Source: a plasmid
Sequence record: NZ_CP137560.1
Length of the DNA: 64,000 bases
Direction: 5' to 3' (one strand)
Below the pieces are notes generated by a model, which was not told where the DNA came from, did no database searches, and worked only from the letters and a program-made list of their open reading frames with translations. The position numbers and the translations under genes were made by a program. Of the stretch, positions 16,990 through 33,525 are shown one piece after another; the stretch's first letter is position 1, and each line of letters begins with the position of its first letter.

Positions 16990-17147
16990 TCTTCCCTTAC
17001 TGATAAACTCAGGAAATACTTTAATTTAAATGGGTGAATTATTGTTTGCCATTTATTAAAGCATCGGCATGACCAAGTATATAATGTGTAAAAGTAGATG
17101 AAGTGAAGTGCTTTTGGTGATATTACCTATTATAGGTATAAACAATA

Positions 17148-17182
17148 AGAAGGGCTGAGTGTTTAGCTTTGCCCTTCTTCAA
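17148..17182. terminator. Hairpin terminator downstream of the S8 peptidase gene
   Basis: AAGAAGGGC-tgagtgtttagcttt-GCCCTTCTT. Confidence 0.5.
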
Positions 17183-17198
17183 TGTCTTATGGAGTATA

Positions 17199-19598
17199 TT
17201 ACACTTCTTGTGCAATAGGTACCCCTATACGATTGCTAATAGCTGTTTCTACAGCGTTGTATATGTCTGTCTCTTTGGTTTCTATTGAAACTATGAGAGA
17301 ATAGGGAACAGAATTGTCCACATTGTCCAGTTTCCTTTCTTTCCACCATCCTTGACCTGGAAATACTACTATCTTGTCCATTTCAGCCAAGTCTGCTGCA
17401 GTACATTCAATCCAGTCGGATTGTACAGTGCCTCTTTCTCGCTTTTGCTGTTTCACGTTCCATCTGGTTGCATCGTTTTGGGTGGTCTTTTCTCCTTCTT
17501 GCTTGTTCCTACGACACAGAAACTCTTCTTCTGTTTCTGTTGCTGTCTTTAGGTCAAAGTGCAATGTAGCAGATGGGTAGCGGTACTTGCTTGTCCTTCC
17601 GGCATAGCCAGGGGATGGCTTCACATAATATGATAATGTGATGCGGATTCTTACGTATTCGTCTCCCATATCTTCCAACAGTTCTTTTGGCCATGGCAAG
17701 TCGTAGTAGTGCATCTTGCCATATATGTTGCCACTGTCACCTTGTGTGTAGGGCTCCAGTTGATTCTCAAAAATATAAGTGGCGCATTTTTCGTTGCTAT
17801 ATACGGCTGCGTTCTCATCTGGAACGCCGTATCCACAGAGTGTCATACGCTCTTCAACATTATTTATACGCATCATTTCATCTGTCCATCGAGCAGAATG
17901 CACCATCAAGCCTCGGATGGAGAGCATTGACAGTTGCGGATTCTCCACTTTTATTTGTGCGGCAAGTCTTGCCGCCAATCCTGTAGCAGCACTTGTCGCA
18001 TTGAAAGGTTCCAATGGCTCTTCTTGCTCATTGCTGGTTGTTACAAGACTCAGGTCGCTATGTGAGGTTTCTCTGAGCAAGTCATGATAAGCTACATTTC
18101 CTCCTTCCATCACAATTTCTGGCTTATTGCGCTTCTCATGCCATGGGTATGAGCTACATGAATATGGCGATACACCACCTGGGGCTGCCAATGGCTTGAA
18201 ACTCTCATCGCCTACAAGAGTCTTTTCGGTATAGGCCCCTACAGTTAGGGCATTCCAAGCCTGTGCAGGGCTCTGCACTGCGTTTGCCTTACAGGATTCT
18301 ATATAGTTGTTATGGTCTACATCGGGTGTCTGTATGTTTCCTGCTGAAACCAAAACCAATCTGTCACATTGCCCCTGATGGTAGATGCTTTCATCAAGTG
18401 CTGCTGAACTGGAGGTGGCTATGCCGTTGTAGGCGCTTTCGTCTGTAATGGCCATGCATTGAATGGATGCACCCATATCCGAAGCTTTGCCGATGGCTTC
18501 TTCTATGACTGCTCCATAAAATTCCTTTGGTGTTTCATGCCCAGCCTCGTAAATTTTAACCGACGACAGTGCATGATGCACTGCTACTGGTGTTTCTCGT
18601 TGGTAGGCAATATTTGTCAAGTCACCAAGCAGGGCTAATCCTGCCATACCAGTACCGTGGTCTGTCTTGTCGGTTGCTTCCAGCACACCAATGGCTACAT
18701 CCATTCGCTCGTCTGGTAGTGCTGGCTTTAATAGTTCGTGTGCATTGTTCACTCCCGAATCCAATATGCCGACTATCACATCCGCATCTTGGTCGTAGGT
18801 GATTTCTCCTTTGATGAGTTCACTCCATTCTCTTTTCTCAGGGTTGCTGCTTGTCAGAATGGATGGCTTATGGTAGGGACGTATGCCTTCAATATATCCC
18901 AATGACAGTGGCAGGGTGCAGAGTTGTTGCTTGGTTGACTTAATCAACCATACATCAACACCATCAAAAAGCAAAGGCTCTGCCATCTTCTCTATACCCA
19001 GTTGATGCAAAGTGTTCTCTATGCGTTCTTGGCTGTTTTCTTTGCTATGGCTCATCCACAATTCGTAAATGTATGAGCCTTCTTCTGGTATTGTGTCAAA
19101 TTCTTCCGCTGACACGTAGAGTGTGCGAATGTCTGTTGCTTCTACACCATTGATAGGGGCGATCAACCTTTCATTGCATGGCTTTCCCTTTGCTGTATTC
19201 TTGGAAGAATAGTCGTCAACTTTATTTTTAAGCCAATCCTTCTTGTCCTTCTTTACATATACAGTAACGTCAACGTCATTTTCTTCTCCGTTGTCAGTTA
19301 CTTTCATGATGGTTGCTCCTTTTGGACTGTCTTGTTTGCCCAAAGAATCTGGTATGAAACTTTTGTCCATTTTCAAATCGACATAGATTCCGTTAGCCAC
19401 AGGCTGTCCTTGTTTTTCTCTTTCTTCCAAATGAGTAACAATCTGATTAACCACAGCTACGTATTGCTCCTTTACCATACTTGCTTGTGCAGCTCTGTCT
19501 TTTGAAGGAAGGGCATGACCGTCAAAGCCCTGTTTCTGTGGTGAAAAACCACGGGCTTCGGCTATATTGTTGCTTAAAAAGAAATGTTTCTTATGCAT
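17199..19598 (-). CDS. S8 (subtilisin-like) serine peptidase, no signal peptide
   Basis: Catalytic Asp (VGILDSGV), His (DHGTGMAG), oxyanion Asn (VSAGN) and Ser (NATSAATG); N-terminus MHKKHFFLSNNIAEARG is not hydrophobic. Confidence 0.85.
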   Translation of the reverse strand: MHKKHFFLSNNIAEARGFSPQKQGFDGHALPSKDRAAQASMVKEQYVAVVNQIVTHLEEREKQGQPVANGIYVDLKMDKSFIPDSLGKQDSPKGATIMKVTDNGEENDVDVTVYVKKDKKDWLKNKVDDYSSKNTAKGKPCNERLIAPINGVEATDIRTLYVSAEEFDTIPEEGSYIYELWMSHSKENSQERIENTLHQLGIEKMAEPLLFDGVDVWLIKSTKQQLCTLPLSLGYIEGIRPYHKPSILTSSNPEKREWSELIKGEITYDQDADVIVGILDSGVNNAHELLKPALPDERMDVAIGVLEATDKTDHGTGMAGLALLGDLTNIAYQRETPVAVHHALSSVKIYEAGHETPKEFYGAVIEEAIGKASDMGASIQCMAITDESAYNGIATSSSAALDESIYHQGQCDRLVLVSAGNIQTPDVDHNNYIESCKANAVQSPAQAWNALTVGAYTEKTLVGDESFKPLAAPGGVSPYSCSSYPWHEKRNKPEIVMEGGNVAYHDLLRETSHSDLSLVTTSNEQEEPLEPFNATSAATGLAARLAAQIKVENPQLSMLSIRGLMVHSARWTDEMMRINNVEERMTLCGYGVPDENAAVYSNEKCATYIFENQLEPYTQGDSGNIYGKMHYYDLPWPKELLEDMGDEYVRIRITLSYYVKPSPGYAGRTSKYRYPSATLHFDLKTATETEEEFLCRRNKQEGEKTTQNDATRWNVKQQKRERGTVQSDWIECTAADLAEMDKIVVFPGQGWWKERKLDNVDNSVPYSLIVSIETKETDIYNAVETAISNRIGVPIAQEV

Positions 19599-19611
19599 AA
19601 AGTTCCATTAT

Positions 19612-20571
19612 TTAGCAGGTTTGACGATTTAACTGCTGACGCATATTCACTATGGTCTGAACCAGTGGAAGGTCTATCTTCCTGTCATTAAGTAGGGATT
19701 CCTTAAATATGTCTGAACAAACCATCTTGATTTCGGCATGACTCATGCCATCAAACAAGGGCTCTACAGATGAGAAATCCAAGTCCTTTGCAGTATAGAG
19801 ATATTCACGAAGCAATGCTAATCGCTGTTCTCTATCTGGCAATTTATACTCTATGACATCATCAAAACGCCTAAACATGGCTTTATCTATGGATTCTATG
19901 CTATTGGTGGCAGCTATGATAAAACTGTCAGAATCATCTCGCTCCAACAGTTGTAGGAACGTATTGAGTATTCTTCGCTGTTCGCCAACTTCGTTGTCCA
20001 TTCCTCGCCGAGAACCGATGGCGTCAAATTCGTCAAACAGATATACTGCTGGTACTTCATTGATAAAATCAAAGATTCTACCTAGCTTCTGACCTGTTTC
20101 CCCCATGAACTTGGTCACAACTTTTTCAGTTCGCACAACAAAGAACGGCAAATTGAATTCTTTTGCAAGGGCACTGGCTGTCATCGTCTTTCCTGTTCCC
20201 GATGCTCCATACAATAGGAGCTTTCGGCGATTTGCCAATCCGTACTTACTTAGAGTTTCTTTCTTTAGATACTCTTTGATGACTCTGTCCAGTTTCTCTT
20301 TCAACTCCTGACTGAGTACCAGACTTGTCAAGTCATCATAGGTATCTACTTGCAGCAGCAAGTCATCTATATCCTTGTTTTTAGACACCAAACGTACCGT
20401 ACCCAAGGATGTTTTCTTTTGGTTGAGCAATTCTTGTATGGTACGTGCTACTATGGCATGACCACTCCTTGCCTCCACAGCGGAAATCTGCAGGGCAACC
20501 TTTCTGAATTGCGTATCATCGTTGTTCTGATGATTTCGTATCAGAGATAATATTTGATCAGCTGTAGCCAT
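19612..20571 (-). CDS. AAA-family ATPase (classic clade)
   Basis: Walker A GASGTGKT, Walker B YLFDEFD, arginine-finger region; 14 bp upstream of the S8 gene, so an operon. Confidence 0.85.
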   Translation of the reverse strand: MATADQILSLIRNHQNNDDTQFRKVALQISAVEARSGHAIVARTIQELLNQKKTSLGTVRLVSKNKDIDDLLLQVDTYDDLTSLVLSQELKEKLDRVIKEYLKKETLSKYGLANRRKLLLYGASGTGKTMTASALAKEFNLPFFVVRTEKVVTKFMGETGQKLGRIFDFINEVPAVYLFDEFDAIGSRRGMDNEVGEQRRILNTFLQLLERDDSDSFIIAATNSIESIDKAMFRRFDDVIEYKLPDREQRLALLREYLYTAKDLDFSSVEPLFDGMSHAEIKMVCSDIFKESLLNDRKIDLPLVQTIVNMRQQLNRQTC

Positions 20572-21070
20572 TTTTCTGTTTATTTACATTTTTTGCTTTG
20601 CAAAAATATGATTTTTTTTCCAAATTCACGAATTTTCACCTTACAAGGGACGTATATTTACGTTTTTTTATTACGTTTGTTGCAATTTTATTACAAATAG
20701 GCGCAATTTTGCTATATTTAGATGGGGTAGGTTATAACGATAAATGCAGCCTTTTCTGACTGCATTATATAAATCATTTGTGCCAACAGCTATATCACTG
20801 CCAAAAAATAAGAGAGTGGAATGCATCACAGAATTGATTGAAATGTTCAATCTCCCTTTTACTTGTAGGGATGGCTTTCTTATCCTTACAAGAACATCTT
20901 CAAAACATCCGTTGCAGGAAAAAAAAGGAGCAAGATAAAAAATCATGACCGACCTTGATGGGAAAAGCTATAGATGGTATCAATCATATGACGATAACTT
21001 AGGAGAAGATCTATATTTACTGATAGTAAAGTGGTTTGATAAGAAATGAGGTTGGTCTAGTTATGACTTC

Positions 21071-21646
21071 TCATTTCTTATTTCTAAGTTCATTAAACTG
21101 TGAGACATTGTAAAACTCCGTAAAGGCACCTCCCTTGCTTTGGTTTCCACAAGAATGAGCATGGCCAAAGACATGGAAACGAGGTTGAGAGCGATAAACC
21201 TCTAACAGTAGAGGAAGGCTTCCCCTACCCTCGTCAAGTATGCCTTCCGGTGGAATATGGGTAATCAAGAAGTCCATTTTGGTAGCAGATTGGACATTTT
21301 GCTCCTTACTTTGCAAGCTTCGCATGGATATATTCCCAAAACTTATCCCATCAAACTCAAAGGTGGAGTCATGAAGGAAAACTACTTTTTTAGGTAAAAG
21401 CGAAATTGTCTGCTCTAAGCAGTCTTCCAAGAACAGCTCATGATTACCTGCGACAAAAATATAAAGTTTGGCAGGATGGCTTAACAACCAGGAAAAGAAG
21501 TTCTCCATGCCATCCTTGCCAAAGTCAGACACTACATCGCCAGCACAAAGCAGGATGTCTGCTTCTTCAGGGATATGAAGCCGCTTGTGCATTCCATGAG
21601 AGTCAGAGAATGCAAAAATCCGATGTTCCTTATAGTTAAATAGCAT
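21071..21646 (-). CDS. Calcineurin-like metallophosphoesterase
   Basis: Motifs D-x-H (FSDSHG), GDxxD (AGDVVSD) and GNHE (AGNHELF). Confidence 0.8.
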   Translation of the reverse strand: MLFNYKEHRIFAFSDSHGMHKRLHIPEEADILLCAGDVVSDFGKDGMENFFSWLLSHPAKLYIFVAGNHELFLEDCLEQTISLLPKKVVFLHDSTFEFDGISFGNISMRSLQSKEQNVQSATKMDFLITHIPPEGILDEGRGSLPLLLEVYRSQPRFHVFGHAHSCGNQSKGGAFTEFYNVSQFNELRNKK

Positions 21647-21664
21647 TGATCTAATCTTATAAAG

Positions 21665-22198
21665 TTAATACTTCAATGGTGAATCTGGGCAGAATCTCTT
21701 CCGTCCGCATTTTTTGCATTGGCTTCCATTCCATACGAAGTCAAACTGGTTGATGGCTTGCTCCACAAAGGAAGGGGCATTGGTCAGGACACCGGCCTCG
21801 AAATTTCTGTTTCTCTCCCCCTTCATGCCGAGGCCTGCACCTGTGAGGTTGGCTGACCCAACATAGGCAGTCTCCAAGTCAAAGATGACCATCTTGAAAT
21901 GTACCCTTGGGCACAAGACTCTCTCCAATCGTTTGGCAAGAATCGAATAATCATCAAAGTCCTTGCGGAAATTAGGGCCAGGCTCCTTGGCATGGATTAA
22001 CCGAACCTCCACTCCACGCTCAATTAATCGAGAGATGACTTTGAGAAAGGGAACGGTCATGGAACTGCTTTTTACATACAAATCCTTGATGTCTGCAGTC
22101 CCTATCCAAAGATGATGTTTCACGTTCGCTATCTTGGCGATGACATCAGTATAGTGGGCACCATTGCTTATGTATTTATAATACGTAGTTTCTGACAT
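21665..22198 (-). CDS. Phospholipase-D-family (HKD) nuclease, Nuc-like, with C-terminal Cys cluster
   Basis: Perfect HKD motif HFKMVIFDLETAYVGSAN; 177 aa single-HKD architecture; C-terminal CKKCGRKRFC. Confidence 0.8.
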   Translation of the reverse strand: MSETTYYKYISNGAHYTDVIAKIANVKHHLWIGTADIKDLYVKSSSMTVPFLKVISRLIERGVEVRLIHAKEPGPNFRKDFDDYSILAKRLERVLCPRVHFKMVIFDLETAYVGSANLTGAGLGMKGERNRNFEAGVLTNAPSFVEQAINQFDFVWNGSQCKKCGRKRFCPDSPLKY

Positions 22199-22235
22199 TT
22201 TATTTCATTTTTTAAGTGATACGAAACCTGTTTCC

Positions 22236-22640
22236 TTATTTTTCCTGGAACACTTTATAAACATCAAACCATAAACCATGCAACATGTCAAGCAGTTTGA
22301 TTTTATCATCTGAAGATATGGGTAAGCCGGCAATGTCCTCTGGCTCGAAGCTGACGGATGAGACTTCATTTTTTAGCTCTAGTAAGAGCATATCCATTCG
22401 TTTCTCCAAGTATTGTTTCAACCAAGAGAGTTCGTCAAAATCACAAGTTGGAATTTTGATGTTTGATACACATTTTTGTTTCTTATCACCTGTCACTGAG
22501 TACAAATTCGCAAACCATATATCGCCAAAGCCAACACTCAAACTGAGTTCTATGCTATATGTCTTTCCCATATAGGAAAAAACAGTCTCACTTTGAGCTT
22601 CATCACCTGTGTCAAAGTCAACCCATTGATTCATCTTCAT
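22236..22640 (-). CDS. Hypothetical protein (operon partner of the PLD nuclease)
   Basis: 134-aa ORF, 38 bp upstream of the PLD gene, overlaps the next upstream ORF by 23 nt. Confidence 0.5.
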   Translation of the reverse strand: MKMNQWVDFDTGDEAQSETVFSYMGKTYSIELSLSVGFGDIWFANLYSVTGDKKQKCVSNIKIPTCDFDELSWLKQYLEKRMDMLLLELKNEVSSVSFEPEDIAGLPISSDDKIKLLDMLHGLWFDVYKVFQEK

Positions 22641-22938
22641 ATGCTTGAATGATTAACAATAGTTGTTCTTCACTTGTGCCCAATGTCTCCTGTACAAGAT
22701 CCACCTTTATTCTGTCCATAAATGATTGTGACACAGACATAAGTTGAACCAGTTCTCCCATCAGCAAAGGATATTTTACAGAGGTGACGATTCGCATAGA
22801 CACCTTATTATATTTTGCCCAATCCACCAGGGTGTATTGCCTAAAAGACCGGCAGATAGCCTCTGCCCTGCTTTCTCCTTTCATTGGAAAGGAATAGATA
22901 CGGCGTTTTACCGATATTCCGTGTTTAGTTTGTTCCAT
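22618..22938 (-). CDS. Hypothetical protein (first gene of the PLD/metallophosphoesterase operon)
   Basis: 106-aa ORF with a translationally coupled overlap onto the downstream gene. Confidence 0.45.
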   Translation of the reverse strand: MEQTKHGISVKRRIYSFPMKGESRAEAICRSFRQYTLVDWAKYNKVSMRIVTSVKYPLLMGELVQLMSVSQSFMDRIKVDLVQETLGTSEEQLLLIIQAYEDESMG

Positions 22939-23053
22939 TATTTCTTATTACTTTATATCTATGACACAAAGGTAGTCTGAAAATGGGAAAAATTACTGCA
23001 CACCTGAAAAATATTTTAGGTGTGACAACATTTTACACAGGAAATATTTACCT

Positions 23054-24622
23054 TTGCCACAAAATAAATATACAATGGAAAAGAAAGAGATAAAGCTACA
23101 AATGAAGGAACTCATCAAACTGATGAGTAAAGGAGTATGGGAAAAAGAGGACATCTTCTCCTTGACCTTGCTTAGCAGCATTGCTGGCGAAAGCATATTC
23201 TTGCTGGGGCCTCCCGGAACTGGCAAAAGTATGATTGCCAGAAGGCTCAAGGAAGTATTCGCCGAAAAGAAACAATTTGAATACTTGATGTCGCGTTTCT
23301 CTACCCCAGACGAGATCTTTGGACCAGTTTCCATATCCAAACTGAAAGACGAGGATACTTATGAAAGAAGAACTGAAGGGTATCTTCCATGGGCAAATGT
23401 GGTGTTTCTGGATGAAATCTGGAAAGCGGGACCTTCCATTCAAAATGCCTTGCTGACAGCCATCAATGAGAAAATCTACCAAAACGGAAATGAGACCATC
23501 AAGCTTCCTATGAAAGCACTCATTGCTGCATCCAATGAGTTACCTAAAGAGGATGAAGGGTTGGAAGCCCTTTGGGATAGATTCATATTACGAGTTGTCT
23601 CTAACCCCATAGCCAATGAACGTACATTCTACAAGATGCTAAAGGGGAAGAACAAGAGTAAAGTTGTCATTCCTGCCGAACTTCTCATAACAGACGAGCA
23701 ATACACACAAATCCTTGAAGAGGTGGAAGATATCGATATTCCTGACAATATACTCAAGGATATCACATTCATTCGCAAGAAGCTAAAAGAGACCGAGTCA
23801 CAGGATGAAGCCGCGAGTCCTCTAGACTATTATATATCAGACAGAAGATGGAAGAAAGCAGTACATCTGCTGCAAACATCGGCATTTCTAAATGGAAGAA
23901 AGGAGATAGACCTAACCGATCTTCCCATACTCTATCATGTGCTATGGAACAAGGTAGAGACCATTGAACCTGTCATGAAAATCGTTACAGAGTCATTATT
24001 CTGGAACATTGAGAATAAATGCTCAGTTGTGGAGAAAGAGTATGAAAAAGGGTTGAAAACGAAAGGCAATGCATTGGCAAACAGTAAAATAGCCAATATC
24101 AATTCTGAAGATTTCAACATCTATTTCTACTTCTATACCAAGCTTATGGGCACAAACTGGGGAGACACCTACTTCTTTCTCCAAGATTATGGATACCTGC
24201 TGATGGACATCGAGACGAAGGGTGTGCTCTATTTTGATAAGGATAAGAATGGATGGATTATCAGGAGAGTTCCTCAAGGTCCCTTCTCATCCAAGAAGTA
24301 TCCACAGCACCAAATCGTCAGTTTGAGAAGGGCGCAAGGTGGAATTATCGTAAATAATGCACTCTACATGATGGAACCATCAAAGATGGCTAGCAAGCCC
24401 ATTTTCCCTCCTACAGGGCAACAAAACTTGTTTTCTGAAGGAGACACACATCTCATTGAGGAGATGCAAAAAATAGGCAATGAACTTAACCAAAAGATGA
24501 GGTTGCTGGAAAAGGAAAATCTATTTGTGTCTTCAACTGACTTGAAGGTCATCCAAAAGTATGCCGACAACTTGCGAAAGAAATGTGAGGCGTTGGAAAT
24601 GAAGATAAAAACTAGCATATAA
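23054..24622 (+). CDS. MoxR/RavA-class AAA+ ATPase
   Basis: Walker A GPPGTGKS; MoxR-type Walker B/sensor block VVFLDEIWKAGPSIQNALLTAINEKIY. Confidence 0.85.
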   Translation: MPQNKYTMEKKEIKLQMKELIKLMSKGVWEKEDIFSLTLLSSIAGESIFLLGPPGTGKSMIARRLKEVFAEKKQFEYLMSRFSTPDEIFGPVSISKLKDEDTYERRTEGYLPWANVVFLDEIWKAGPSIQNALLTAINEKIYQNGNETIKLPMKALIAASNELPKEDEGLEALWDRFILRVVSNPIANERTFYKMLKGKNKSKVVIPAELLITDEQYTQILEEVEDIDIPDNILKDITFIRKKLKETESQDEAASPLDYYISDRRWKKAVHLLQTSAFLNGRKEIDLTDLPILYHVLWNKVETIEPVMKIVTESLFWNIENKCSVVEKEYEKGLKTKGNALANSKIANINSEDFNIYFYFYTKLMGTNWGDTYFFLQDYGYLLMDIETKGVLYFDKDKNGWIIRRVPQGPFSSKKYPQHQIVSLRRAQGGIIVNNALYMMEPSKMASKPIFPPTGQQNLFSEGDTHLIEEMQKIGNELNQKMRLLEKENLFVSSTDLKVIQKYADNLRKKCEALEMKIKTSI

Positions 24623-24630
24623 TTTTTAAT

Positions 24631-25977
24631 ATGGAAGATATAGACAAACGGATTGACGAATATTCTGGGCTTTTTGACCTCTACATCGAGGGGAAGCCCA
24701 TTCCTCCAGAGTACAAGGATGATCCTGTGGCAGGGTATATAGAAGAAATCTGCCAAGACTCAGGAAACAAGGAACTTTGCAGAAAAGAAGAGACATGGAA
24801 AGAAATTTTCAGAAAGGAAATTATTTCCATGTTGGAGGGTATATTGCCTGTCGTTTCCACAATAGAGAGGGAATATGAGGAAGAAATGAAGATATTATCC
24901 CACTTCTTTGCATCCAACATAGAGCAAAAACGCCTGGCATGGAACGGTATCGCCAAGCACTTGCACGATACTTTCGACTGCAGCATGTTCAATATACATG
25001 GATATATCCAGGAATTTGGAAAAAAACAGAAAACTACTGACGAAATTTTTGATGCCATGGAAGCTAATTGGAAAGAGGCTAGCAAGAAGAGGAAAGACCA
25101 GAAGATTGCGCAAGTACTTTCCAATAGTATGCAAAAAATTGAGCAAGAAATCATAACCTGTGGTGACATAGACTACAAGAAGGAACAGAAGAAGGCTCGT
25201 TTCTTCCACAAGTACCCTCAACTAAAGGAGATAGCCAAGAAGATGGGAAGGGAAAAAGAGAGAAGTGAAGAAATGGATGATGCCACCATGACTAGATACA
25301 TTCCTATATTACTCAAGCATTCCCATGACAGGCAAGACATAGATGGCGTATCCTTGGGAAATGACCTGGATAGCTTGCTTCCCACGGAGATTGCCATGAT
25401 GGACTCTCCCACCTTTTATGCAAAGTTTGCAAAAAGACAGCTGCAGCAATTTTCCTCAAAGGCTGCACAGAACAAGCGTGAAAAATCAACGGTTCATTAT
25501 AAGAAGCCTCGCCTTCTGCAAGGCCCCATGATTATTTGTATTGATACAAGTGGATCCATGAGTGGTAGACCTTTGGAAATCGCAAAGTCTCTATTGCAGC
25601 AACTCGCGGCTATAGCGAAAAAGGAAAAGAGAAGCTGTTTTCTCATCTCGTTCTCTATCAGAACAAAGACCTTGGACTTGGCAAGACCCAGTAATTATTA
25701 TAAGATAGATAAATTCTTCAAGGGCAGCTTTTCCGGGGGTACTAATGGGGAAAAAATGCTAATGGAAATTTTCAAGATGCTCGATTCTGAAAAATATTCC
25801 ATGGCCGATGCACTTATCATCAGCGACTTCTGTTTTCCTCTTCCTATAAAAAAAACAATGCAGAGACTGAAGGAAGAACAAGAAAAAGGAACTCGTCTCT
25901 ACGGACTTAATGTCCAAAGAAGAAATCCATACGCAAAGGACTACAAGGAAATTTTAGATAAGATGTGGAACTTATGA
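24631..25977 (+). CDS. VWA-domain protein (ViaA-like partner of the MoxR ATPase)
   Basis: C-terminal von Willebrand A domain with MIDAS D-x-S-x-S (ICIDTSGSMSG); 8 bp after the ATPase gene. Confidence 0.8.
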   Translation: MEDIDKRIDEYSGLFDLYIEGKPIPPEYKDDPVAGYIEEICQDSGNKELCRKEETWKEIFRKEIISMLEGILPVVSTIEREYEEEMKILSHFFASNIEQKRLAWNGIAKHLHDTFDCSMFNIHGYIQEFGKKQKTTDEIFDAMEANWKEASKKRKDQKIAQVLSNSMQKIEQEIITCGDIDYKKEQKKARFFHKYPQLKEIAKKMGREKERSEEMDDATMTRYIPILLKHSHDRQDIDGVSLGNDLDSLLPTEIAMMDSPTFYAKFAKRQLQQFSSKAAQNKREKSTVHYKKPRLLQGPMIICIDTSGSMSGRPLEIAKSLLQQLAAIAKKEKRSCFLISFSIRTKTLDLARPSNYYKIDKFFKGSFSGGTNGEKMLMEIFKMLDSEKYSMADALIISDFCFPLPIKKTMQRLKEEQEKGTRLYGLNVQRRNPYAKDYKEILDKMWNL

Positions 25978-26585
25978 CGACAAAATATACAATCAACCCT
26001 TCGCTCAGGTTATGCACATGGTGCCTTGTAGTAGGATGGCATGAGGTGAAAGACTCACTCTTGCAATCCGAAAGCATTTTTTCATGTGAAGGAAGAAGTA
26101 TCTATACCAAAGGAGACCGATGTATGATTATGGCGCAAGTAAACGAAAAGAGAATTGATTTTTATTACTGCCATGACACAAAATTCGACAACAGAAACAT
26201 TCAAAGTTGGCTAAGAAATATCATTAAGAATAAGATTCTAGACCTGGCAAACATTGAACTCCCCAAGAGATTGCATTATTGGGAAAAGGAGAAAAATCTA
26301 TATGCAAGACAAGTCATCATAAAAAAATTGAAGAGAAGGAACATATGGGGGCAATGTTCCATCTATAAACAGATTTTCTTGCCGCCAAAGATTGTGGTTT
26401 TCCCATTGGAATTGATTGACGAGATTATCCTACATGAAATGAGTCATCTCAAATTTATGCATCATAGGAAACAATTTTGGGAGTACTTTAGTTTCCTGCT
26501 AGGTAGAGATGCCAAACTATGCAAAATGAAGGAAAGTGTATTTTTCGCCAAATACGACGAAATGATAGAGTTCTTACTAAAATAA
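25965..26585 (+). CDS. DUF45/YgjP-like HExxH metal-dependent hydrolase
   Basis: HEMSHLKFMHHRKQFWEYF matches the YgjP/SprT-like H-E-x-x-H…H…FW signature; overlaps the VWA gene by 13 nt. Confidence 0.7.
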   Translation: MELMTTKYTINPSLRLCTWCLVVGWHEVKDSLLQSESIFSCEGRSIYTKGDRCMIMAQVNEKRIDFYYCHDTKFDNRNIQSWLRNIIKNKILDLANIELPKRLHYWEKEKNLYARQVIIKKLKRRNIWGQCSIYKQIFLPPKIVVFPLELIDEIILHEMSHLKFMHHRKQFWEYFSFLLGRDAKLCKMKESVFFAKYDEMIEFLLK

Positions 26586-26654
26586 TTGGCAACTGTGCAA
26601 CATTATTTCTCACTTTTTCATTATCTTTGTGCCAAAATTTAAAAGTTATAGAAT

Positions 26655-27560
26655 ATGGCTATCAATCAATTGAACAAATATGTCTGGCTCGTAGAGACCA
26701 TTCATCGAGCAAGGAACCGGGGTGGCATCACCTTGAAGGAGATTCAAAGCAGATGGTTGGATTCTGACATTAGTGAAGGAACGGAACTTTCTCGCCGTAC
26801 CTTCATCAATAATCTCCATGCCATCGAGGAACTGTTTGAGATTAATATCGAATGCGGCAGCGGATTCCGCTATCACATTGAGTATGGTGACTGTTTCGAG
26901 GAAGGAAGCGCCAGGAACTGGTTGCTCAACGCCTTCTCGCTCAATGCTATGGTAGGTAACAGCCGCAAGCTCAAGGAGAGGGTTCTCCTGGAGGACATGC
27001 CATCTGGCAGGAACTTCCTGGAGGATATCATCAAGGCGATGCGCGACAACCACGTCATATTCATCTCTTACTACAGTTACTATAACGAAAAGTATTATGA
27101 GTTTGACATCCATCCTTATTTCGTGAAGGCTTTCAAGAAACGTTGGTATGTGGTCGCATATAGTCCTGGCACGAACGATATCCGTTGCTATGCACTTGAC
27201 CGTATGGAGAATGTCATCATCTCCGAGGAAGTGTTCAAGATGCCTAAGAATCTGGAACCAGCTGAATACTTCAAGGATTGCTTTGGCATCATCAATAACA
27301 AGGATTCCGAAGTTCAAAAGGTAGTGCTAAAGGTTGATGCCTTCCAGAGTAACTACATACGCAATCTTCCTCTCCATGAGTCGCAAAAGGAAGCAGAGCG
27401 AACAGAAGAATACTCCATCTTTGAGTATCACTTGAAACCAGAATTTGATTTTGAACAGGAGATTTTCTCTAACATGGATACCGTGGAGGTGTTGGAACCT
27501 CTATGGCTAAGAGAAGAGGTGAAGGAAAGAATAAAAAATCTTGCAAGTAAGTATCTTTGA
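26655..27560 (+). CDS. WYL-domain transcriptional regulator (N-terminal HTH + WYL)
   Basis: WYL core KKRWYVVAYSPGTNDIRCYALDRM; 301 aa is a typical size. Confidence 0.8.
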   Translation: MAINQLNKYVWLVETIHRARNRGGITLKEIQSRWLDSDISEGTELSRRTFINNLHAIEELFEINIECGSGFRYHIEYGDCFEEGSARNWLLNAFSLNAMVGNSRKLKERVLLEDMPSGRNFLEDIIKAMRDNHVIFISYYSYYNEKYYEFDIHPYFVKAFKKRWYVVAYSPGTNDIRCYALDRMENVIISEEVFKMPKNLEPAEYFKDCFGIINNKDSEVQKVVLKVDAFQSNYIRNLPLHESQKEAERTEEYSIFEYHLKPEFDFEQEIFSNMDTVEVLEPLWLREEVKERIKNLASKYL

Positions 27561-27593
27561 AAGGCAACCCATCAATGTTCTTTTGTCAAGGGA

Positions 27594-28799
27594 CTAAATA
27601 TCCAGTCCCTTGACACAATCTATAGCTTCGTCAAACATTCTTGAGAAATCATTTAAAGTTTTACCGTTCAGCAAGTCTTTTATCCCAGAGGCATTATCCC
27701 AATATTGATTTCCATTAAAAATCTTCCAAATCCAATATTGGTCACTTTGGGAGGAATAATTCTTTTGAACATTTTCCCAGTCTTTTACATCTTCACGCTT
27801 GACTCCAGTTTTTGTGCGAAAGCCAAAGTATGGATCTCTCATTCCTCCGCAATTAAATCCAAATGCAAGTCTAAGATACTTCCAATGGTGATTATAAAAT
27901 GATGCTACTACATCCGATTTTTTCATCCAATTCTCTGTACAATCATCTCCCATAATCAACCCTTTGCTTTCTGCTAAATCCCTTAATTTAGGAATAAACA
28001 CTTCTTTTATAAATCTGTTTACAACAATATTTTTATTGTTTGCAATATCATAAATTGCATCTAAATTTTCTTCTTTACATAGAATATCTAATAGGTCCTT
28101 ATTATCTTCCATAACGTTATTTGTTAATATGTCAATAGTACTAATATATTGATTGATAGTTTCTCTCACGAGCGGAGTTCTTGAAGCCAACTCCACGCAA
28201 CGATCAAGCCATCCTCTAATATCACTCTTATAGGATAGGCAAACTATATCATTTTCCTTTAAGTCTTCACCCAAAGATTCTTTTGAAGGAGAGCAACCAT
28301 CCAATGTCAAGTAAATCAATACAAATGATTTTTCCGTATCGTCTCCTTTTTGTGACATTCCATAATTCCAGTATCTTAGCATCTGATGATATTGGTCAAC
28401 TGCATAGATTTTATTTTCTATGATAATACTATGCTTGCCATCAGTAAGATAAATATCTATTCTGCCGCCTTCACTATCAGTTTGCCTACCTATATATTTC
28501 TCTACTTCTACAGAAGCGATAGTCGTGTCTATTTCTAAACTATCTGCAGATATTGCAGGAAATGTTTTTTGCAGCATTTTCAAAAATGCCTCAAGGAATT
28601 TGCCTCTTTGTCCGTGACTTCCTTTTGGATTCAGCAGGTTTGCCAAAAACATAGAGTGTAGATGGACTTCATCTGACATGAAGCCCAAATCATTGAAAAT
28701 ATTATAATTTTCACCACGCTCAAACTTTTCTTTTCTTTGTTCTTTTATTTTTCGTGAAACTATTCGAACTTGGTTTAGAATATTGATTATATCATTCAT
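27594..28799 (-). CDS. PD-(D/E)xK nuclease-superfamily protein
   Basis: GRIDIYL…IIIENKIYA gives the D…E-x-K catalytic arrangement; last gene of the AAA-HAD operon. Confidence 0.55.
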   Translation of the reverse strand: MNDIINILNQVRIVSRKIKEQRKEKFERGENYNIFNDLGFMSDEVHLHSMFLANLLNPKGSHGQRGKFLEAFLKMLQKTFPAISADSLEIDTTIASVEVEKYIGRQTDSEGGRIDIYLTDGKHSIIIENKIYAVDQYHQMLRYWNYGMSQKGDDTEKSFVLIYLTLDGCSPSKESLGEDLKENDIVCLSYKSDIRGWLDRCVELASRTPLVRETINQYISTIDILTNNVMEDNKDLLDILCKEENLDAIYDIANNKNIVVNRFIKEVFIPKLRDLAESKGLIMGDDCTENWMKKSDVVASFYNHHWKYLRLAFGFNCGGMRDPYFGFRTKTGVKREDVKDWENVQKNYSSQSDQYWIWKIFNGNQYWDNASGIKDLLNGKTLNDFSRMFDEAIDCVKGLDI

Positions 28800-28863
28800 C
28801 GCATTATAAGCTATAATTGTTTACCTTAGAAACGAAATTCCATCTAATTTATTGTAGAAGTTA

Positions 28864-29505
28864 TTATTTTTGCCAATGAAAATGACTACGCAAACACTCT
28901 TTGTACATTAGGGCACGACGATTCATGTTGTTCATCTCTTTTTCTGGATACCAACAAAAATAAGCCATGAAAAGCATCACCATAAGGATATAGACCGCAA
29001 TAAATTTTAGGGCACCATAAAACCAACGTTTCATTTGACTGATCTCTTTGGTATTTAAAATTTGAATTGCTACTCTCACATCAGCCTTATCAAGACCTTT
29101 GCTACCTTCAACTTTCACCAGATGTTCTCGTTGAGAAAACAGAAAATCTTCCTCGTCATCAAGAATTATATAACGATAAGGCTCTTTGGCGTTCAATCTT
29201 AGCCATTCTGCAATCTCCAAGCCTTTACATCCATGTAAGCCTTGCCATTCCTCCACCCCATCTACATTGCTAAAGTTAACGGAATTGCAAGAAGGTGTCA
29301 AGCCTATGACTTCGCCTGGCATATGGTGTTCCTGCCACAACTTCTGTATGTACTTCATACCTTGCAATCGCCAAGTGGAAGAAATGATGATCTTGGCATC
29401 ACTTCTTTCCACCAAATGGAGCAAATTGGCTACAGCTTTCTTAGCAAATTTACCTTTTGGAGTATTGATTACTCCATCAAAATCTAAAAATATATACTTC
29501 TCCAT
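28864..29505 (-). CDS. HAD-superfamily phosphatase (HAD_SAK / polynucleotide-phosphatase-like) with C-terminal TM helix
   Basis: Motif I FLDFDGVINT (DxDGV); small cap-less HAD; 25 bp downstream of the AAA gene. Confidence 0.65.
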   Translation of the reverse strand: MEKYIFLDFDGVINTPKGKFAKKAVANLLHLVERSDAKIIISSTWRLQGMKYIQKLWQEHHMPGEVIGLTPSCNSVNFSNVDGVEEWQGLHGCKGLEIAEWLRLNAKEPYRYIILDDEEDFLFSQREHLVKVEGSKGLDKADVRVAIQILNTKEISQMKRWFYGALKFIAVYILMVMLFMAYFCWYPEKEMNNMNRRALMYKECLRSHFHWQK

Positions 29506-29529
29506 ACCTTTTTTGTTATATATCAGCCG

Positions 29530-31203
29530 TTAGAATCCAATTTTTCTCTTGGTACGACTCCCTTCCAGTCTTTCATTTTCACAAAACTCAACAAGGGATT
29601 TGGCCATGTTCTCTGGCTGGCCATGCAATATCGACTGGATGGTAAAATGACGGGCGATGTTCTCTATTTCACCACCGCTGAAATCATACTTGCCCGCCAG
29701 GTAACTGGCATCGGCATCATTCAAAGGCGGAATCATCGCTTGCCAAATCTGAGTACGGCAATTCAAGTCTGGCTTCTCAAACTGTATCTTATAGAGGAAA
29801 CGGCGCTCGAAGGCCTTGTCCATGTTCTCTGCGAGGTTGGTCGTGGCAATGAGGATGCCATCCAACTGTTCTATCTCCTGAAGGATGATATTCTGAATAC
29901 TGTTTTCCATCTTCTCAACGGCTCTTTCCGCCCCCACCTGACGCTTGCCGATGATGGCATCAGCCTCGTTGAAAAGCAAGATGGGTGCCTTGGCTAATTG
30001 TTTCACCTTCTTCTTATAATCATCGAAGATGCCCTTGATATTCTTTTCGCTCTCGCCTACCCACATGCTCTTAACCTCTGAAACGTTCACCTGAATCAAG
30101 TCACGGCCAGTCTTCTTGGCTATCTGAAGCACAGTCTCTGTCTTTCCTGTACCAGGCGCACCATAGAAAAGGCAGGCAAAGCCGCTTCTGAAGTTGGTTT
30201 CTTTCAATCGATTTTTGATACGCTGGAAATGCTCCTCATCCAAGAGGGAAGTTAACTCTTCCACTTGCCTTTGTTCCTTGCTATTGTAGAATAGTTGCTT
30301 GGGGCTGATGTCCTCAAAGGATAGCATGCCACCCTTCGGGCGAGAACCACGCATGGATGATAGGTTGAGTTCCGAGAAAAGCTGTTTCTTGGCATCATCC
30401 GTAATTTTGAACGACTCTCTATCCACAAAGCCATCATCATTGGTATATTCAATGAACTTCTCCACAAAAAACAAGTGATCACCTTGACTCAAGCCTCGCT
30501 TTTCGCATCGCCATTCTGCATCGCCTTCTTTATATATAAATTCCAAGTCGTGGTATCGGATGTCATCATCACCATTGACAACAAAGAGTGTACAAAACAA
30601 GACGAAAAGCGGGAAGTACAGATCATCCGCATCTACATCGTAGGAAGCCATCGCCTTGACAAAAGCCAACTTTTCGTTCTTGGCTACCAATGCCCTCAAT
30701 TTCCTTCTCAGCACTTGTTTGTCAATCTTTCTACGGCGACATTTCGTAAACAACTCATCGAACTTGTCAAATAGTTCTCTGGCTGTAAGTTCCTCCACAT
30801 CCATAGGATTATAACGCTCATTATGTTGGAACGCCTCCATCACCTCCATTGGGATGGTATAATAGAAACCTTCATCCCTATTGCGGCAGATATATTCCTT
30901 GTCAACAAGCTCTTGGATTTCATTGGCATATCGAAGCAAGCTAAGGATGCGGCAGCCCAAGAAATCCGTAAAGTCCGAGAACTGGATGTGACTGTCATCG
31001 CATCTGTCGGCAAACAAGGCCATGATGGCACTGGCACGCTTGGATATGTCCAGTTTATCGGAGACAAATCCAAGATATGAATCAGTCTCCTCATAGAACT
31101 TCTCACCCAGAGAAGAATTCTTTGCCTTATCTACGATTATTTCGAATGCTTGGAGCAAGTCCATCTGCTCCATATCTTTTTTACACGACGTTTGCATAAC
31201 CAT
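29530..31203 (-). CDS. AAA-family ATPase with about 330-aa N-terminal domain of unknown function
   Basis: Walker A GAPGTGKT, Walker B ILLFNEAD, sensor-1 and arginine-finger region in the C-terminal 230 aa. Confidence 0.85.
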   Translation of the reverse strand: MVMQTSCKKDMEQMDLLQAFEIIVDKAKNSSLGEKFYEETDSYLGFVSDKLDISKRASAIMALFADRCDDSHIQFSDFTDFLGCRILSLLRYANEIQELVDKEYICRNRDEGFYYTIPMEVMEAFQHNERYNPMDVEELTARELFDKFDELFTKCRRRKIDKQVLRRKLRALVAKNEKLAFVKAMASYDVDADDLYFPLFVLFCTLFVVNGDDDIRYHDLEFIYKEGDAEWRCEKRGLSQGDHLFFVEKFIEYTNDDGFVDRESFKITDDAKKQLFSELNLSSMRGSRPKGGMLSFEDISPKQLFYNSKEQRQVEELTSLLDEEHFQRIKNRLKETNFRSGFACLFYGAPGTGKTETVLQIAKKTGRDLIQVNVSEVKSMWVGESEKNIKGIFDDYKKKVKQLAKAPILLFNEADAIIGKRQVGAERAVEKMENSIQNIILQEIEQLDGILIATTNLAENMDKAFERRFLYKIQFEKPDLNCRTQIWQAMIPPLNDADASYLAGKYDFSGGEIENIARHFTIQSILHGQPENMAKSLVEFCENERLEGSRTKRKIGF

Positions 31204-31313
31204 AATAGCACTACATTAATACATACTATTTTCTCCATGAGGGAAAGACTTCTAAAATCCGTTCCTCCCAATATAGTTCTCAAATAAGATTTATTTTCCA
31301 TACTTGTCTATAT

Positions 31314-31631
31314 TTAGAAGGCGAAATCATCCTCTTCCTCATCCTCACCATTTGGGAACATGACGCTTCTCTCATACTCTGGATCATAGAATTCATACTC
31401 ATCCTTCACCTGTTTGATTTTCTTCTGGATGGAACAAATCTTCTCCAGTTCCGGAAATTGAAGATGTTCACGATTAAACTCCAATAGCTCGTTCAGGTCT
31501 CTCTCAAAGGAACAAACCTCTGATTGAAACTCATCCATGTCAAACTCAGGATCATAGAAGAGGTCATTATCTAAAGCCTCATTCAAACGGTTTTCCATCT
31601 TATCCAATTGCTCTTTTATAGTTTTGTCCAT
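31314..31631 (-). CDS. Small highly acidic protein
   Basis: 105 aa; D/E-rich including EDEEEDDFAF at the C-terminus; upstream of the AAA gene on the same strand. Confidence 0.45.
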   Translation of the reverse strand: MDKTIKEQLDKMENRLNEALDNDLFYDPEFDMDEFQSEVCSFERDLNELLEFNREHLQFPELEKICSIQKKIKQVKDEYEFYDPEYERSVMFPNGEDEEEDDFAF

Positions 31632-31692
31632 AATGCTTTATTTTTAAGTATATGTTCGATTTATGAAATAAGAATCTTACCTGATGAAAGAT

Positions 31693-32172
31693 TCATTTTT
31701 CGTAGGAGTCTGAGAGTAACAGGATTTGCTTCACCTTGGAAAGCAAATCTTTCTCTGTAACTTCTAAGTTCAAAGATGCCCCATTCCCTGTTATATTGAC
31801 ACCTAAAACACCTGCAAGTTTTATCAGATGTTTTGCACTTCCACTCTTTACAAAAAGACAAATAGACCATTCACCACAAATACAATAAAGGGTTATATAA
31901 ATGGGCCTGTTGTCATACATGATTTGATAACCATATTTTTCAACATATGGAATCTTGCCATCGAAGGTTTCCGCTATAAAGGAAGCTATCTCCTCGTGGA
32001 ACTTCTTCTTAAAAACGTTGGCGTATTCTTCGGAAATCTCATCCTTGGCACTGATAATCTGCTCTTGGGCATCTTCCAAATCATCAAGCAAATCGTCTAA
32101 AGCCGAGCATTTTTCGATAATGTTCAGTCCTTTTAACTTCGCCATTTCTTTATTAATATCAAACTTCTCCAT
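31693..32172 (-). CDS. Hypothetical protein; its promoter and 5' end are duplicated at about 35941-36010
   Basis: 159-aa ORF; the N-terminal codons MEKFDINKEMAKL recur as a fragment MEKFNINKEMAKLKKLN in repeat A copy 2. Confidence 0.5.
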   Translation of the reverse strand: MEKFDINKEMAKLKGLNIIEKCSALDDLLDDLEDAQEQIISAKDEISEEYANVFKKKFHEEIASFIAETFDGKIPYVEKYGYQIMYDNRPIYITLYCICGEWSICLFVKSGSAKHLIKLAGVLGVNITGNGASLNLEVTEKDLLSKVKQILLLSDSYEK

Positions 32173-32492
32173 TGTATATCAATTAAAAATTCTGATGCAA
32201 AGATAGCCCACACCTGTGTAAGTTCGTTTCACACAATAAAAAAATTTTTCATGCGCAATGATTTTTCTCACGATTCACCGAATTTTGCAGAAAAATGAAT
32301 GAGCAAACAATGGAAATGGAAAAAGAACAATTAAACGGCAAGATAATGGATAGGGAGGATATCAAACATACCTTCAAAACGAGGTATCTCAATAGTGATA
32401 AGGTAATCTTCTCTGAAAAGGGATGATTCGCAATTTAAATATAAAACACAGCATTCCGACAATAAAAGCAACTTTTATTTTGGTTTGTCCAA
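32118..32492. repeat. Repeat A copy 1 (about 375 bp; roughly 90% identical by eye to 35941-36337)
   Basis: Aligned by eye; includes the start of gene 31693-32172 and its upstream region. Confidence 0.85.
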
Positions 32493-32496
32493 GTAT

Positions 32497-33122
32497 ATCG
32501 AGAAAAATGATATTTATGAGCGGACAGGGCATCCTTGCAGACTGGTTGTTGAAAGGTTTGGTCAGTTTTGATAGGTTTGAGGGACAAACGTATCTCTGCA
32601 GTATTAGATATATATAAGAAATTACCAGAAGAAGCGGAGCTGCTCATTAGTCATTCTTTCCTTAATGACAAGATGAAAAGAACCTATATCCGAATCATCA
32701 AGGAAAGAATCGCTAGGTTCAATAGGCAGTCAGAATGGCTTCCTATAACTCCAAGTCGAGCCCATCATCAAACTCAACATTCTGGAATGTATGAATGCCG
32801 AGGTTTTCCGCAGCGACACAATTCTCCTGGAGGTCGTCAATAAACAACGATTCTTCAGGAACTATCGCTGCCTGTCTGATGACTTCCTCGTAGATTTTTG
32901 CATCCGGCTTGGAGAGATGGACGCCGCTGTGAAAGGAAGACATTTTCAAAATAGTCTTCCACATTATGCCCCTGATAGGGGAATAACTTCTCCACACAAT
33001 AATCCCAGTGAATGTCTATGGTGTTGCTCAATAGAAAGAGACGATAACCCTTAGCCTTGAGCTTTAAAAGCCTGCGTTTCTTCTCATCGGGAATAACAAC
33101 CAACATTCGATTGGCCGCTTCA
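32497..33122 (-). pseudogene. Repeat B copy 1: 3' two-thirds of a HAD hydrolase gene, frameshifted (copy of 38579-39200)
   Basis: About 93% nucleotide identity to the intact HAD gene region; coding split over two frames (32743-32997 and 32855-33106); N-terminal about 78 codons absent. Confidence 0.75.
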
Positions 33123-33409: not shown

Positions 33410-33525
33410 CTCAGCTGGTAGAGCATAGTTTTGTGTGGGAATTACCATCATCAAGCTGGTCAACTCACACATACTGCTGCAATGAAAGCCTAGTGTCGCT
33501 GGTTCGATTCCAGCTTGCAGCCCCA
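33400..33525 (+). ncRNA. tRNA-like RNA gene with canonical acceptor stem, D-arm, T-arm and encoded CCA, but an about 70-nt structured insert in place of the anticodon arm
   Basis: 5' GCUGCGA-UA-GCUC-AGCUGGUA-GAGC-A, then 72 nt containing an 8-bp stem UGUGUGGG/CUCACACA around an ACCA…UGGU hairpin, then GCUGG-UUCGAUU-CCAGC, UUGCAGC-C-CCA; no 5-7-5 anticodon stem-loop can be drawn. Confidence 0.5.

Follow-up and report, generated by a model that had tools for sequence, protein, structure and literature searches.

We describe here a cluster of defence-type genes in a stretch of 64,000 nucleotides (nt) of sequence record NZ_CP137560.1, which is referred to below as the window and whose positions are used throughout. 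The cluster was initially delimited at 17199-32172. Our reading is that it represents a strain-variable conflict island on the chromosome of the Segatella copri complex, in which a copy of the IetAS system has been inserted into a rearranged version of a recurrent gene set, and which would work by the mechanism proposed below; as a whole, we hold this to be slightly better than an even proposition. Its parts differ in strength: that the island is a genuine conflict locus and contains IetAS is highly probable, that the modules other than IetAS are functionally linked is evenly balanced, and the mechanism in its specific form is improbable. The island can be understood as two layers, of which the first is an inserted 6-kb block that comprises a divergent IetAS and a dead helicase. 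The second is older, and consists of a fixed MoxR-vWA-YgjP core around which other families shuffle, namely an HKD nuclease, DUF6557-family proteins, a WYL protein, a winged-helix ATPase (here AAA557) with a HAD phosphatase, a PD-(D/E)xK nuclease, and a metallophosphoesterase, with a DEDD exonuclease and, in other genomes only, RtcB and a PrfH-like protein as further members.

An initial annotation had presented the cluster as four unrelated operons, each pairing a nucleoside triphosphatase (NTPase) with an effector. All 16 of its 16 open reading frames (ORFs) are found where it had placed them in our ORF map, its domain assignments hold in Pfam, and the catalytic motifs of every island enzyme read as intact. 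The pairing applies to operons 1, 3, and 4; operon 2 has no NTPase. Its view that none of the four is a characterised, named system has to be given up for operon 1, which is IetAS (PADLOC IetA 1e-65, IetS 2e-36). Nor are the four unrelated: genes of operons 2, 3, and 4 co-recur in other Bacteroidales, often in one codirectional array, and two of the promoters have one 22-nt motif in common. The broader description of the cluster as defence-island-like and polymorphic in presence or absence is borne out by a strain comparison of contigs. Similarly, a PADLOC scan gave dense matches, including IetA/IetS, PDC-S10, PDC-S26, and WYL, and in the flanks PDC-S01 and PDC-S48/DEDDh. The island reaches past 17199-32172, as the PDC-S01 gene, a truncated DUF6557 gene, and the DEDD exonuclease gene lie outside these limits.

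Operon 1 represents the IetAS system, which is said to feature in the work of Gao et al. of 2020. It consists of ietA (19612-20571, minus strand), for an AAA+ ATPase of 319 amino acids (aa; Pfam AAA), and ietS (17199-19598, minus), for an S8 peptidase of 799 aa (Pfam Peptidase_S8, 6.7e-46). Both genes lie on one strand with ietA first, and a gap of 13 nt separates the ietA stop at 19612 from the ietS start at 19598. The PADLOC IetA model matches residues 2-301 of the ATPase (9.7e-66), which has Walker A GASGTGKT and Walker B LFDE, and the catalytic triad of IetS is D280, H314, and S536. Because both proteins are far below the NCBIfam equivalog cutoffs, operon 1 is, as judged from its sequence, a divergent Bacteroidales branch of IetAS and not an E. 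coli-type orthologue. In the published system, as described in 2026, IetA is an antitoxin-like ATPase and IetS a protease toxin, and the protection against phage requires the protease (PMC13069673); by analogy, the IetA ATPase here would restrain the IetS subtilase toxin until infection frees IetS. An ORF of 91 aa at 20671-20946 is probably not a gene, since it has no homologue and no family match.

The IetAS block has visible edges. Downstream of ietS lies a decayed superfamily 2 helicase with WG_beta_rep repeats (15252-~17100, minus; Pfam and frame reading), which retains the Helicase_C lobe only; the DEXH lobe is gone, the 5' end is truncated, and what is left contains a frameshift. Partial PADLOC mREase_IV/PbeA matches point to a resemblance to helicases of type IV restriction and to PbeA. 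On the other side of the remnant is a truncated DUF6557-family gene (14306-15145, plus) of 279 aa. Reading of the junctions indicates that the IetAS block replaced the last 74 codons of this DUF6557 gene together with the last codons of the metallophosphoesterase gene of operon 2. The DUF6557 family recurs upstream of MoxR in other loci.

Close homologues of the island genes carry the name Segatella copri, and 3-Mb chromosomal contigs are the location of relatives. For the strain comparison, human-gut metagenome contigs were found by exact-protein look-up and aligned to the window, and at least 3 haplotypes are present among the aligned S. copri contigs. The IetAS block (15129-21080, 5.95 kb, with ietA, ietS, and the dead helicase) is absent from contigs L002-L006, which have an intact DUF6557 gene of 353 aa. 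Of these, L002, L003, L005, and L006 also lack MoxR-vWA-YgjP. All 4 contigs have an identical junction, at which the initial 12 codons of MoxR continue in frame, through the 11-nt repeat AAATGAAGGAA, into the final ~18 codons of YgjP. The allele that lacks these three genes is a microhomology deletion, not an empty site. A different account of the strains without them, by which the window had received a cassette insertion and the WYL gene was independent, was considered and is overturned by the reading of this junction. In addition, PDDEXK and WYL are replaced in L006, and a 6-kb segment with a 752-aa gene, a tRNA-like element, and the DEDD exonuclease is variably present between strains.

At the centre of the older layer is operon 3, with a MoxR ATPase of 515 aa (23075-24622, plus; bpMoxR/AAA_5/AAA_lid_8 in Pfam), a vWA protein of 448 aa (24631-25977, plus; VWA_2 and VWA_CoxE matches), and a zinc metallopeptidase of the YgjP/DUF45 type (WLM-like) of 203 aa (25974-26585, plus; Pfam 2.2e-19), the start of which overlaps the vWA stop codon. 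MoxR matches Pfam bpMoxR (PF20030) at 7e-54, and its AAA+ module is RavA-like, residues 12-301 aligning with residues 13-295 of RavA in the PDB at 1.8e-81. The NCBIfam RavA model scores 339 bits (cutoff 681) and aligns over model positions 10-296 of 498 only; in the C-terminal ~200 residues, beyond residue ~311, nothing known was matched in Pfam or the PDB. The vWA protein matches NCBIfam ViaA over residues 181-428 at 150 bits (cutoff 500). No known match was found for its N-terminal ~180 residues, and a vWA profile gave no match against PDB sequences. The MIDAS motif DTSGS..GGT..SD is intact, and its DTSGS, GGT, and SD elements are invariant in the family alignment, as is HEMSH..HH across that of YgjP. 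The YgjP family comprises 262 clusters by profile search and 17 proteins by single-sequence search.

None of MoxR, vWA, and YgjP matched a PADLOC system. For the three-gene set, with or without PLD, AAA557, or RtcB, we found no description in the searchable literature; the defence models compared were those of PADLOC, not the newest of DefenseFinder. The MoxR-vWA-YgjP gene set is what may be new here, as defence islands in general, the IetAS system, regulators of the WYL type, and the PDC candidates were already known. Of 2.9 million viral contigs, the vWA query matched 2 and full-length AAA557 none; because they are essentially absent from viral contigs, vWA and AAA557 are host genes and not phage genes.

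Two surveys address how widely these families occur together. In the first, one genome per species was taken, which gave 77 Bacteroidales loci with AAA557, and neighbours within 7 kb were recorded. WYL was found near 28 of these, PDDEXK_4 near 12, RNase_T near 11, and RtcB near 10, followed by PLD (8), MoxR (6), metallophosphoesterase (6), and HAD_SAK_2 (4). The second was a profile search of metagenomes with vWA, which added 62 more distant loci (L116-L177), 60 of them with a vWA ORF; the vWA of these loci is ~38% identical to that of the window, and dereplication at 80% vWA identity left 13 lineages. MoxR is present in 11 of the 13, YgjP in 9, and AAA557 in 5, while WYL, PLD, and RtcB each occur in 4. 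In the distant loci, the overlap of MoxR with vWA is 4 nt. YgjP overlaps vWA by 4-19 nt in 9/13 lineages, the overlap being 13-19 nt in most of the distant loci.

The commonest codirectional order begins with WYL, the DEDD exonuclease, small proteins, DUF6557, a DUF6557-like protein of 245 aa, and a protein of 83 aa, and continues with MoxR, vWA, YgjP, an optional protein of 278 aa, and PLD, with GmrSD genes alongside. One locus, L175, carries seven homologues of window genes, drawn from operons 2, 3, and 4, in an array on one strand with gaps of at most 85 nt: GmrSD, PLD, FtsK-like, s106-like, MoxR, vWA, YgjP, AAA557, RhuM/Fic, HAD_SAK_2, and an uncharacterised gene (cluster d36). Another, L030, has AAA557, MoxR, vWA, YgjP, and PLD with gaps of at most 34 nt. 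In four species a WYL gene, RtcB, and a PrfH-like gene directly precede AAA557. Because the same families recur together in other Bacteroidales arrays, the window has the appearance of a single recurrent set of genes that is rearranged here and into which IetAS was inserted. The initial annotation had held that orthologues in conserved housekeeping contexts would speak against a defence island; instead, related loci adjoin GmrSD, DarT, and similar genes, RhuM-Fic included. A short protein with a tubulin/FtsZ-like GTPase domain (227-243 aa) was also seen within MoxR-vWA-YgjP clusters of other Bacteroidales (L131 3678-4361, L172 9002-9733). A canonical-looking FtsZ at 43006-44373 of the window was considered as its counterpart and is not the same protein (26% identity, E-value 9e-4).

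Further evidence for a link between operons comes from their promoters. Bacteroidetes-type -7 boxes of the form TAnnTTTG precede DUF6557, ietA, s106, MoxR, WYL, and s159; that of ietA is TATTTTTG, 30 nt upstream of the ATG at 20571, and WYL has a box of its own, TATCTTTG, at 26622. A scan for sigma-70 promoters and terminators returned counts equal to the shuffled expectation. The divergent s106/MoxR promoter region (22999-23041) holds a perfect palindrome, CACACCT-N12-AGGTGTG, which overlaps a 22-nt motif, GTGTGA-N8-TACACAGG, located at 23020-23041 just upstream of the MoxR -7 box. A second exact copy of the motif is found at 32213-32234 (minus), directly upstream of the s159 -7 box TATCTTTG. 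The window has 3 matches versus 0.2 expected from shuffles, the third being a duplicated copy of the s159 site. In a relative with a vWA 88% identical (L109), both sites are kept with one mismatch each, and the neighbouring bases are changed. The motif is a candidate operator common to the MoxR and AAA557 operons, and the WYL protein and the N-terminus of AAA557 are plausible binders of it. Neither the motif nor looser TGTG..CACA palindromes show enrichment in distant loci, and for this reason we limit the operator claim to the S. copri lineage.

AAA557 is encoded at 29530-31203 (minus; 557 aa), in an operon whose first gene is the small protein s159 (31693-32172, minus), followed by s105 (31314-31631, minus), a very acidic protein with an isoelectric point of 4.1; within Segatella, s105 always precedes AAA557. 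The protein has two winged-helix modules and then a classical-clade AAA+ domain resembling IetA; this C-terminal domain matches VCP/p97 at ~1e-33 and PADLOC IetA at 1.2e-31. AlphaFold models are confident, with a mean predicted local distance difference test score (pLDDT) of 85, for the full length and for residues 1-296 alike. Walker B reads N-E instead of D-E (FNEAD, residue 412), and the asparagine is invariant in a 26-sequence family alignment. A search at E<1e-30 gives 2015 representative clusters for this very large family, and its full-length matches are 36-48% identical.

Downstream in the same operon are a HAD_SAK_2 phosphatase (28864-29505, minus; 213 aa; Pfam 1.6e-26) and a PDDEXK_4 nuclease (27594-28799, minus; 401 aa; Pfam 1.6e-38). 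The nuclease matches PADLOC candidate PDC-S26 at full length (6e-99) and has the D..ExK motif. The HAD protein has a DFDG motif, and its Pfam family is that of the "Swiss Army Knife RNA repair" HAD proteins. The initial annotation had counted it as an effector; it is of the RNA-end-healing type, has RtcB and PrfH-like partners elsewhere, and is perhaps a repair enzyme instead. Its residues 166-184 form a strongly hydrophobic C-terminal helix (LKFIAVYILMVMLFMAYFC), which suggests membrane anchoring, an unexpected trait in an RNA-end-healing enzyme.

Operon 2 comprises a calcineurin-like metallophosphoesterase (21071-21646, minus; 191 aa; Pfam Metallophos), an HKD protein of the PLD family (21665-22198, minus; 177 aa; Pfam PLDc_2 1e-13), and the small proteins s134 (22236-22640, minus; acidic, isoelectric point 4.5) and s106 (22618-22938, minus). 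The metallophosphoesterase matches PADLOC candidate PDC-S10 (1.1e-39) and has the motifs DSH, GD, GNHE, and GHAH. The HKD protein is Nuc-like in size with a single domain, its HxK(x4)D..GSxN motif is intact, and in other loci its homologues (1e-67 to 1e-76) are found after YgjP. DrmC of DISARM matches it in the HKD-motif region only (39 bits vs a cutoff of 133; PADLOC E-value ~1e-7), and no Drm helicase or methylase genes are present in the island. By iterated searches with hidden Markov models (HMMs), s106 joins the DUF6557 family as a short member, with relatives directly upstream of MoxR in L150, L175, and cluster d3. No homologue of s134 was found outside S. copri, and comparison of s134, s159, s105, and the 91-aa ORF with 17 neighbour families (iterated HMMs and hhalign) gave none above 40% probability.

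The WYL+WCX regulator-like protein (26655-27560, plus; 301 aa) has Pfam matches to WYL (PF13280, 4.7e-16) and WCX (PF25583, 3.5e-9) and matches PADLOC WYL at 2.5e-30; Pfam reported no helix-turn-helix (HTH) in residues 1-118. The WYL region is 90% identical between haplotypes (L002 7602-8801 vs window 26524-27725), with flanks at 97-99%, which suggests that the allele was replaced or that the regulator evolves faster. In the right flank is an RNase_T / Rv2179c-like DEDD exonuclease (36329-36853, plus; Pfam, PADLOC PDC-S48/DEDDh), of a family that is usually paired with WYL in related loci. The HAD family, together with the RtcB, PrfH-like, and exoribonuclease neighbours elsewhere, makes it possible that HAD phosphatase, metallophosphoesterase, and DEDD exonuclease serve in healing and are not effectors.

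How such a set might operate can be outlined as a working model, in which each biochemical step and the anti-phage role are inferred; what the analysis shows is the gene content, the intact motifs, the polymorphism, the recurrence of the set, and the motif common to two promoters. The WYL protein and/or AAA557 would hold the divergent promoters shut through the common 22-nt site until a nucleic-acid-derived signal arrives. A target protein would then be captured by the MIDAS site of vWA and remodelled by MoxR with ATP, and the translationally coupled YgjP/WLM protease would cleave the target or an inhibitor. The HKD and PD-(D/E)xK nucleases would attack invading DNA, while phosphatase, phosphoesterase, and exonuclease would heal RNA ends damaged in the conflict and limit self-damage. 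This would amount to an undescribed modular, multi-operon immune system of Bacteroidales, in which MoxR-vWA drives a WLM/YgjP protease and an HKD nuclease and is co-regulated, by way of a common operator, with AAA557 and RNA-repair enzymes; we put this forward as a tentative idea that we consider rather unlikely.

It is important to set out what weighs against the reading of a conflict island built on a recurrent, linked gene set. The IetAS pair scores low against the NCBIfam equivalogs (IteA 186 bits, cutoff 510; IteS 75.6 bits, cutoff 900), and the AAA+ module of MoxR has its nearest counterpart in RavA of E. coli, a protein with known roles outside defence. The immediate neighbours of AAA557 are hypervariable, and 71 of the 77 AAA557 loci are without MoxR. 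A fixed order is seen only for MoxR-vWA(-YgjP), IetA-IetS, RtcB with PrfH-like, and s105-AAA557. The co-occurrence figures are raw counts without a background control, and recurrence alone is no proof of joint function, because defence genes cluster together anyway. No copy of the 22-nt motif was found in distant lineages or in other Segatella species that have AAA557 and no MoxR. Much of this would also be expected if the locus were a hotspot of independent defence modules of one or two genes with no multi-operon system, an explanation we regard as possible and still on the unlikely side. It accords with gene order and partners that differ greatly between loci, with PADLOC treating the metallophosphoesterase, PDDEXK_4, and AAA_14 as single-gene candidates, and with S. 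copri strains that drop MoxR-vWA-YgjP yet keep everything else. What it does not readily explain are the tight codirectional arrays of the same families at ~38% vWA identity (L030, L150, L172, and L175), the presence of AAA557 in 5 of 13 vWA lineages, and a 22-nt motif at two promoters that is conserved in a diverged relative. Alternatively, the core other than IetAS could heal RNA cut by ribotoxins, whether those of competitors or phages or the abortive-infection nucleases of the cell itself, and include no phage-killing effectors. The RNA repair family of the HAD protein and the tRNA-like RNA inside the island fit this account, as do RtcB, PrfH-like RF-1 proteins, and Rv2179c-like 3'-5' exoribonucleases, which are recurrent neighbours of AAA557 and of MoxR-vWA-YgjP, with RtcB directly before MoxR in L116 and L117. 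Calcineurin-type phosphoesterases are RNA end-healing enzymes in Pnkp. However, there is no RtcB among the Pfam-scanned ORFs of the window and no RNA ligase in it, HKD and PD-(D/E)xK proteins are typically DNases, and the MoxR-vWA-protease triad has no known RNA-repair role, so that we consider this account rather doubtful.

Two further explanations place the island outside immunity altogether. If its genes were toxin-antitoxin-like stabilisers of a mobile or plasmid-derived segment, it would matter that the first description of IetAS was as a toxin-antitoxin pair that stabilises plasmids (PMC13069673), that a replicon remnant with ParA, Rep3, and iterons lies 13-20 kb to the right, and that transposases and segmental duplications are nearby. 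Maintenance cargo of this kind is nonetheless improbable, given that the island sits between chromosomal genes (sulfatase, MFS transporter, and HAD) conserved in all strains, that homologues are on 3-Mb chromosomal contigs, that no integrase or conjugation genes are among the Pfam-scanned window ORFs, and that natural deletions of modules are tolerated. Least credible of all, and very hard to sustain, is a housekeeping role in which MoxR-vWA is a RavA-ViaA orthologue that matures respiratory or metabolic complexes and the remaining genes are unrelated metabolic hydrolases. The RavA match of the AAA+ module and the ViaA match of vWA are its basis; but both proteins are below the NCBIfam equivalog cutoffs, the C-terminal LARA region of RavA is unmatched, the triad is deleted in many conspecific strains, and its neighbours everywhere are nucleases, GmrSD, WYL, and RtcB genes.

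The conflict island as we read it is set among other features of the window. The initial annotation had given it insertion sequences, a decayed helicase, and segmental duplications as flanks; the latter two are real, and the insertion sequences are not immediate flanks, as transposase genes lie at a distance of 8-10 kb on the left side and of 28 kb on the right. On the left these are an IS66 transposase (6092-7651) and a DDE fragment (4971-5867), and on the right a DDE_5 transposase (60147-61586). The left flank also has an AAA_14/DUF4143 ATPase gene (10829-12181, minus; PADLOC PDC-S01, 8e-179, full length). A mosaic of segmental duplications at 32117-33409 is composed of copies of 35961-36337, 38562-39200, and 12343-12632. 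The last of these forms a 290-nt direct repeat (12343-12632 and 33120-33409, 97% identical) that brackets 20.8 kb, a span containing the sulfatase gene, the truncated DUF6557 gene, the IetAS block, and all other operons.

To the right of the mosaic, a tRNA-like element at 33400-33522 (plus) matches the Rfam tRNA model at 43 bits and was not called by ARAGORN. In place of the anticodon loop it has ~50 extra nt that fold into a GUGUGGG...CUCACAC hairpin, and its upstream 290 nt together with its first 11 nt are duplicated at 12343-12632. The element lies 100 nt upstream of the 752-aa gene (33625-35883, plus), whose product has a weak Prok-RING_4 match (3.8e-5), no Pfam family above threshold, and no PADLOC or PDB match; between strains, the gene comes and goes together with the element. 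Further right, a plasmid-like replicon remnant of low GC content (45487-52237, 0.27-0.31) includes ParA (45487-46173), a Rep3-like initiator (48767-50035), and two arrays of 22-nt iteron-like repeats (50679-50886 and 52052-52237). A protein of 1317 aa with a Schlafen/AlbA_2 domain (53042-56995, minus) adjoins dnaB; it has no PADLOC match and could be another defence-type gene. Genes for an SprT-like metalloprotease (58838-59266, minus) and a DUF559 protein (59508-60119, minus) are located between dnaB and the DDE_5 transposase gene.

Few bacteria of the human gut are more abundant than Segatella copri, and there is hardly any work on its phage defences. The natural deletion alleles provide ready-made isogenic comparisons of phage susceptibility in gut isolates. 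The physiological function of the RavA/ViaA branch of MoxR ATPases is still debated, and if the MoxR-vWA-YgjP set works as a system, this branch would gain a role in defence or conflict, a protease-centred mechanism would be added to the known defence repertoire, and DNA-targeting effectors would be tied to RNA repair in one regulon. If the working model is true, attack on an invader and repair of the collateral RNA damage would be encoded together in this way.

Comparison with known systems helps to place these claims. Operon 1 is like IetAS in its layout, as the gene of a classical AAA+ ATPase comes immediately before that of an S8 subtilase and both lie on one strand. The validated ietHAS variant carries an extra helicase (PMC13069673), and a helicase gene is attached here too; in contrast, ours is downstream, not detectably SNF2, and dead, being both truncated and frameshifted. 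To our knowledge, PDC-S10, PDC-S26, PDC-S01, and PDC-S48 are computational candidates without published activity. The island proteins resemble them by full-length or near full-length HMM matches; in PADLOC they are single-gene candidates, whereas here they lie within a recurrent multi-family neighbourhood. The WYL protein is like regulators of the BrxR/CapW type in its WYL domain with WCX extension, length of ~300 aa, defence-gene neighbours, and own promoter, and it differs in that Pfam detected no N-terminal HTH and that WYL is usually paired with the DEDD exonuclease in related loci. The RtcB-PrfH or "Swiss Army Knife" RNA-repair module has in common with the island HAD_SAK_2 and the RtcB, PrfH-like, and DEDD genes near the same families; the described module does not include MoxR-vWA-YgjP and an HKD nuclease as associates, and the window is without RNA ligase.

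For the core itself, RavA-ViaA of Enterobacteria offers a RavA-type AAA+ module, a ViaA-like vWA partner with MIDAS, and the same gene order. Here, however, the LARA domain is unmatched, a metallopeptidase gene overlaps the vWA gene, and the set belongs to a variable island and is deleted in some strains. Earlier predictions of MoxR-vWA conflict systems describe beta-propeller or STAND sensors and peptidases fused to vWA (PMC7159879). These ternary systems of Kaur, Burroughs, Iyer, and Aravind (eLife 2020), from which the bpMoxR Pfam model was built, have a bpMoxR-type ATPase with vWA, a linked peptidase effector, and a conflict context in common with the island. No beta-propeller/VMAP or inactive-STAND sensor is present among the island ORFs or the Pfam-scanned proteins of related loci. 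Their hosts are multicellular bacteria and their peptidase is a trypsin or caspase domain fused to vWA, whereas here the hosts are unicellular gut Bacteroidales and a YgjP/WLM-type peptidase is encoded by a separate gene. Finally, if true, MoxR-vWA-WLM/YgjP would be a prokaryotic parallel to Cdc48 acting with Wss1/SprT proteases on DNA-bound proteins.

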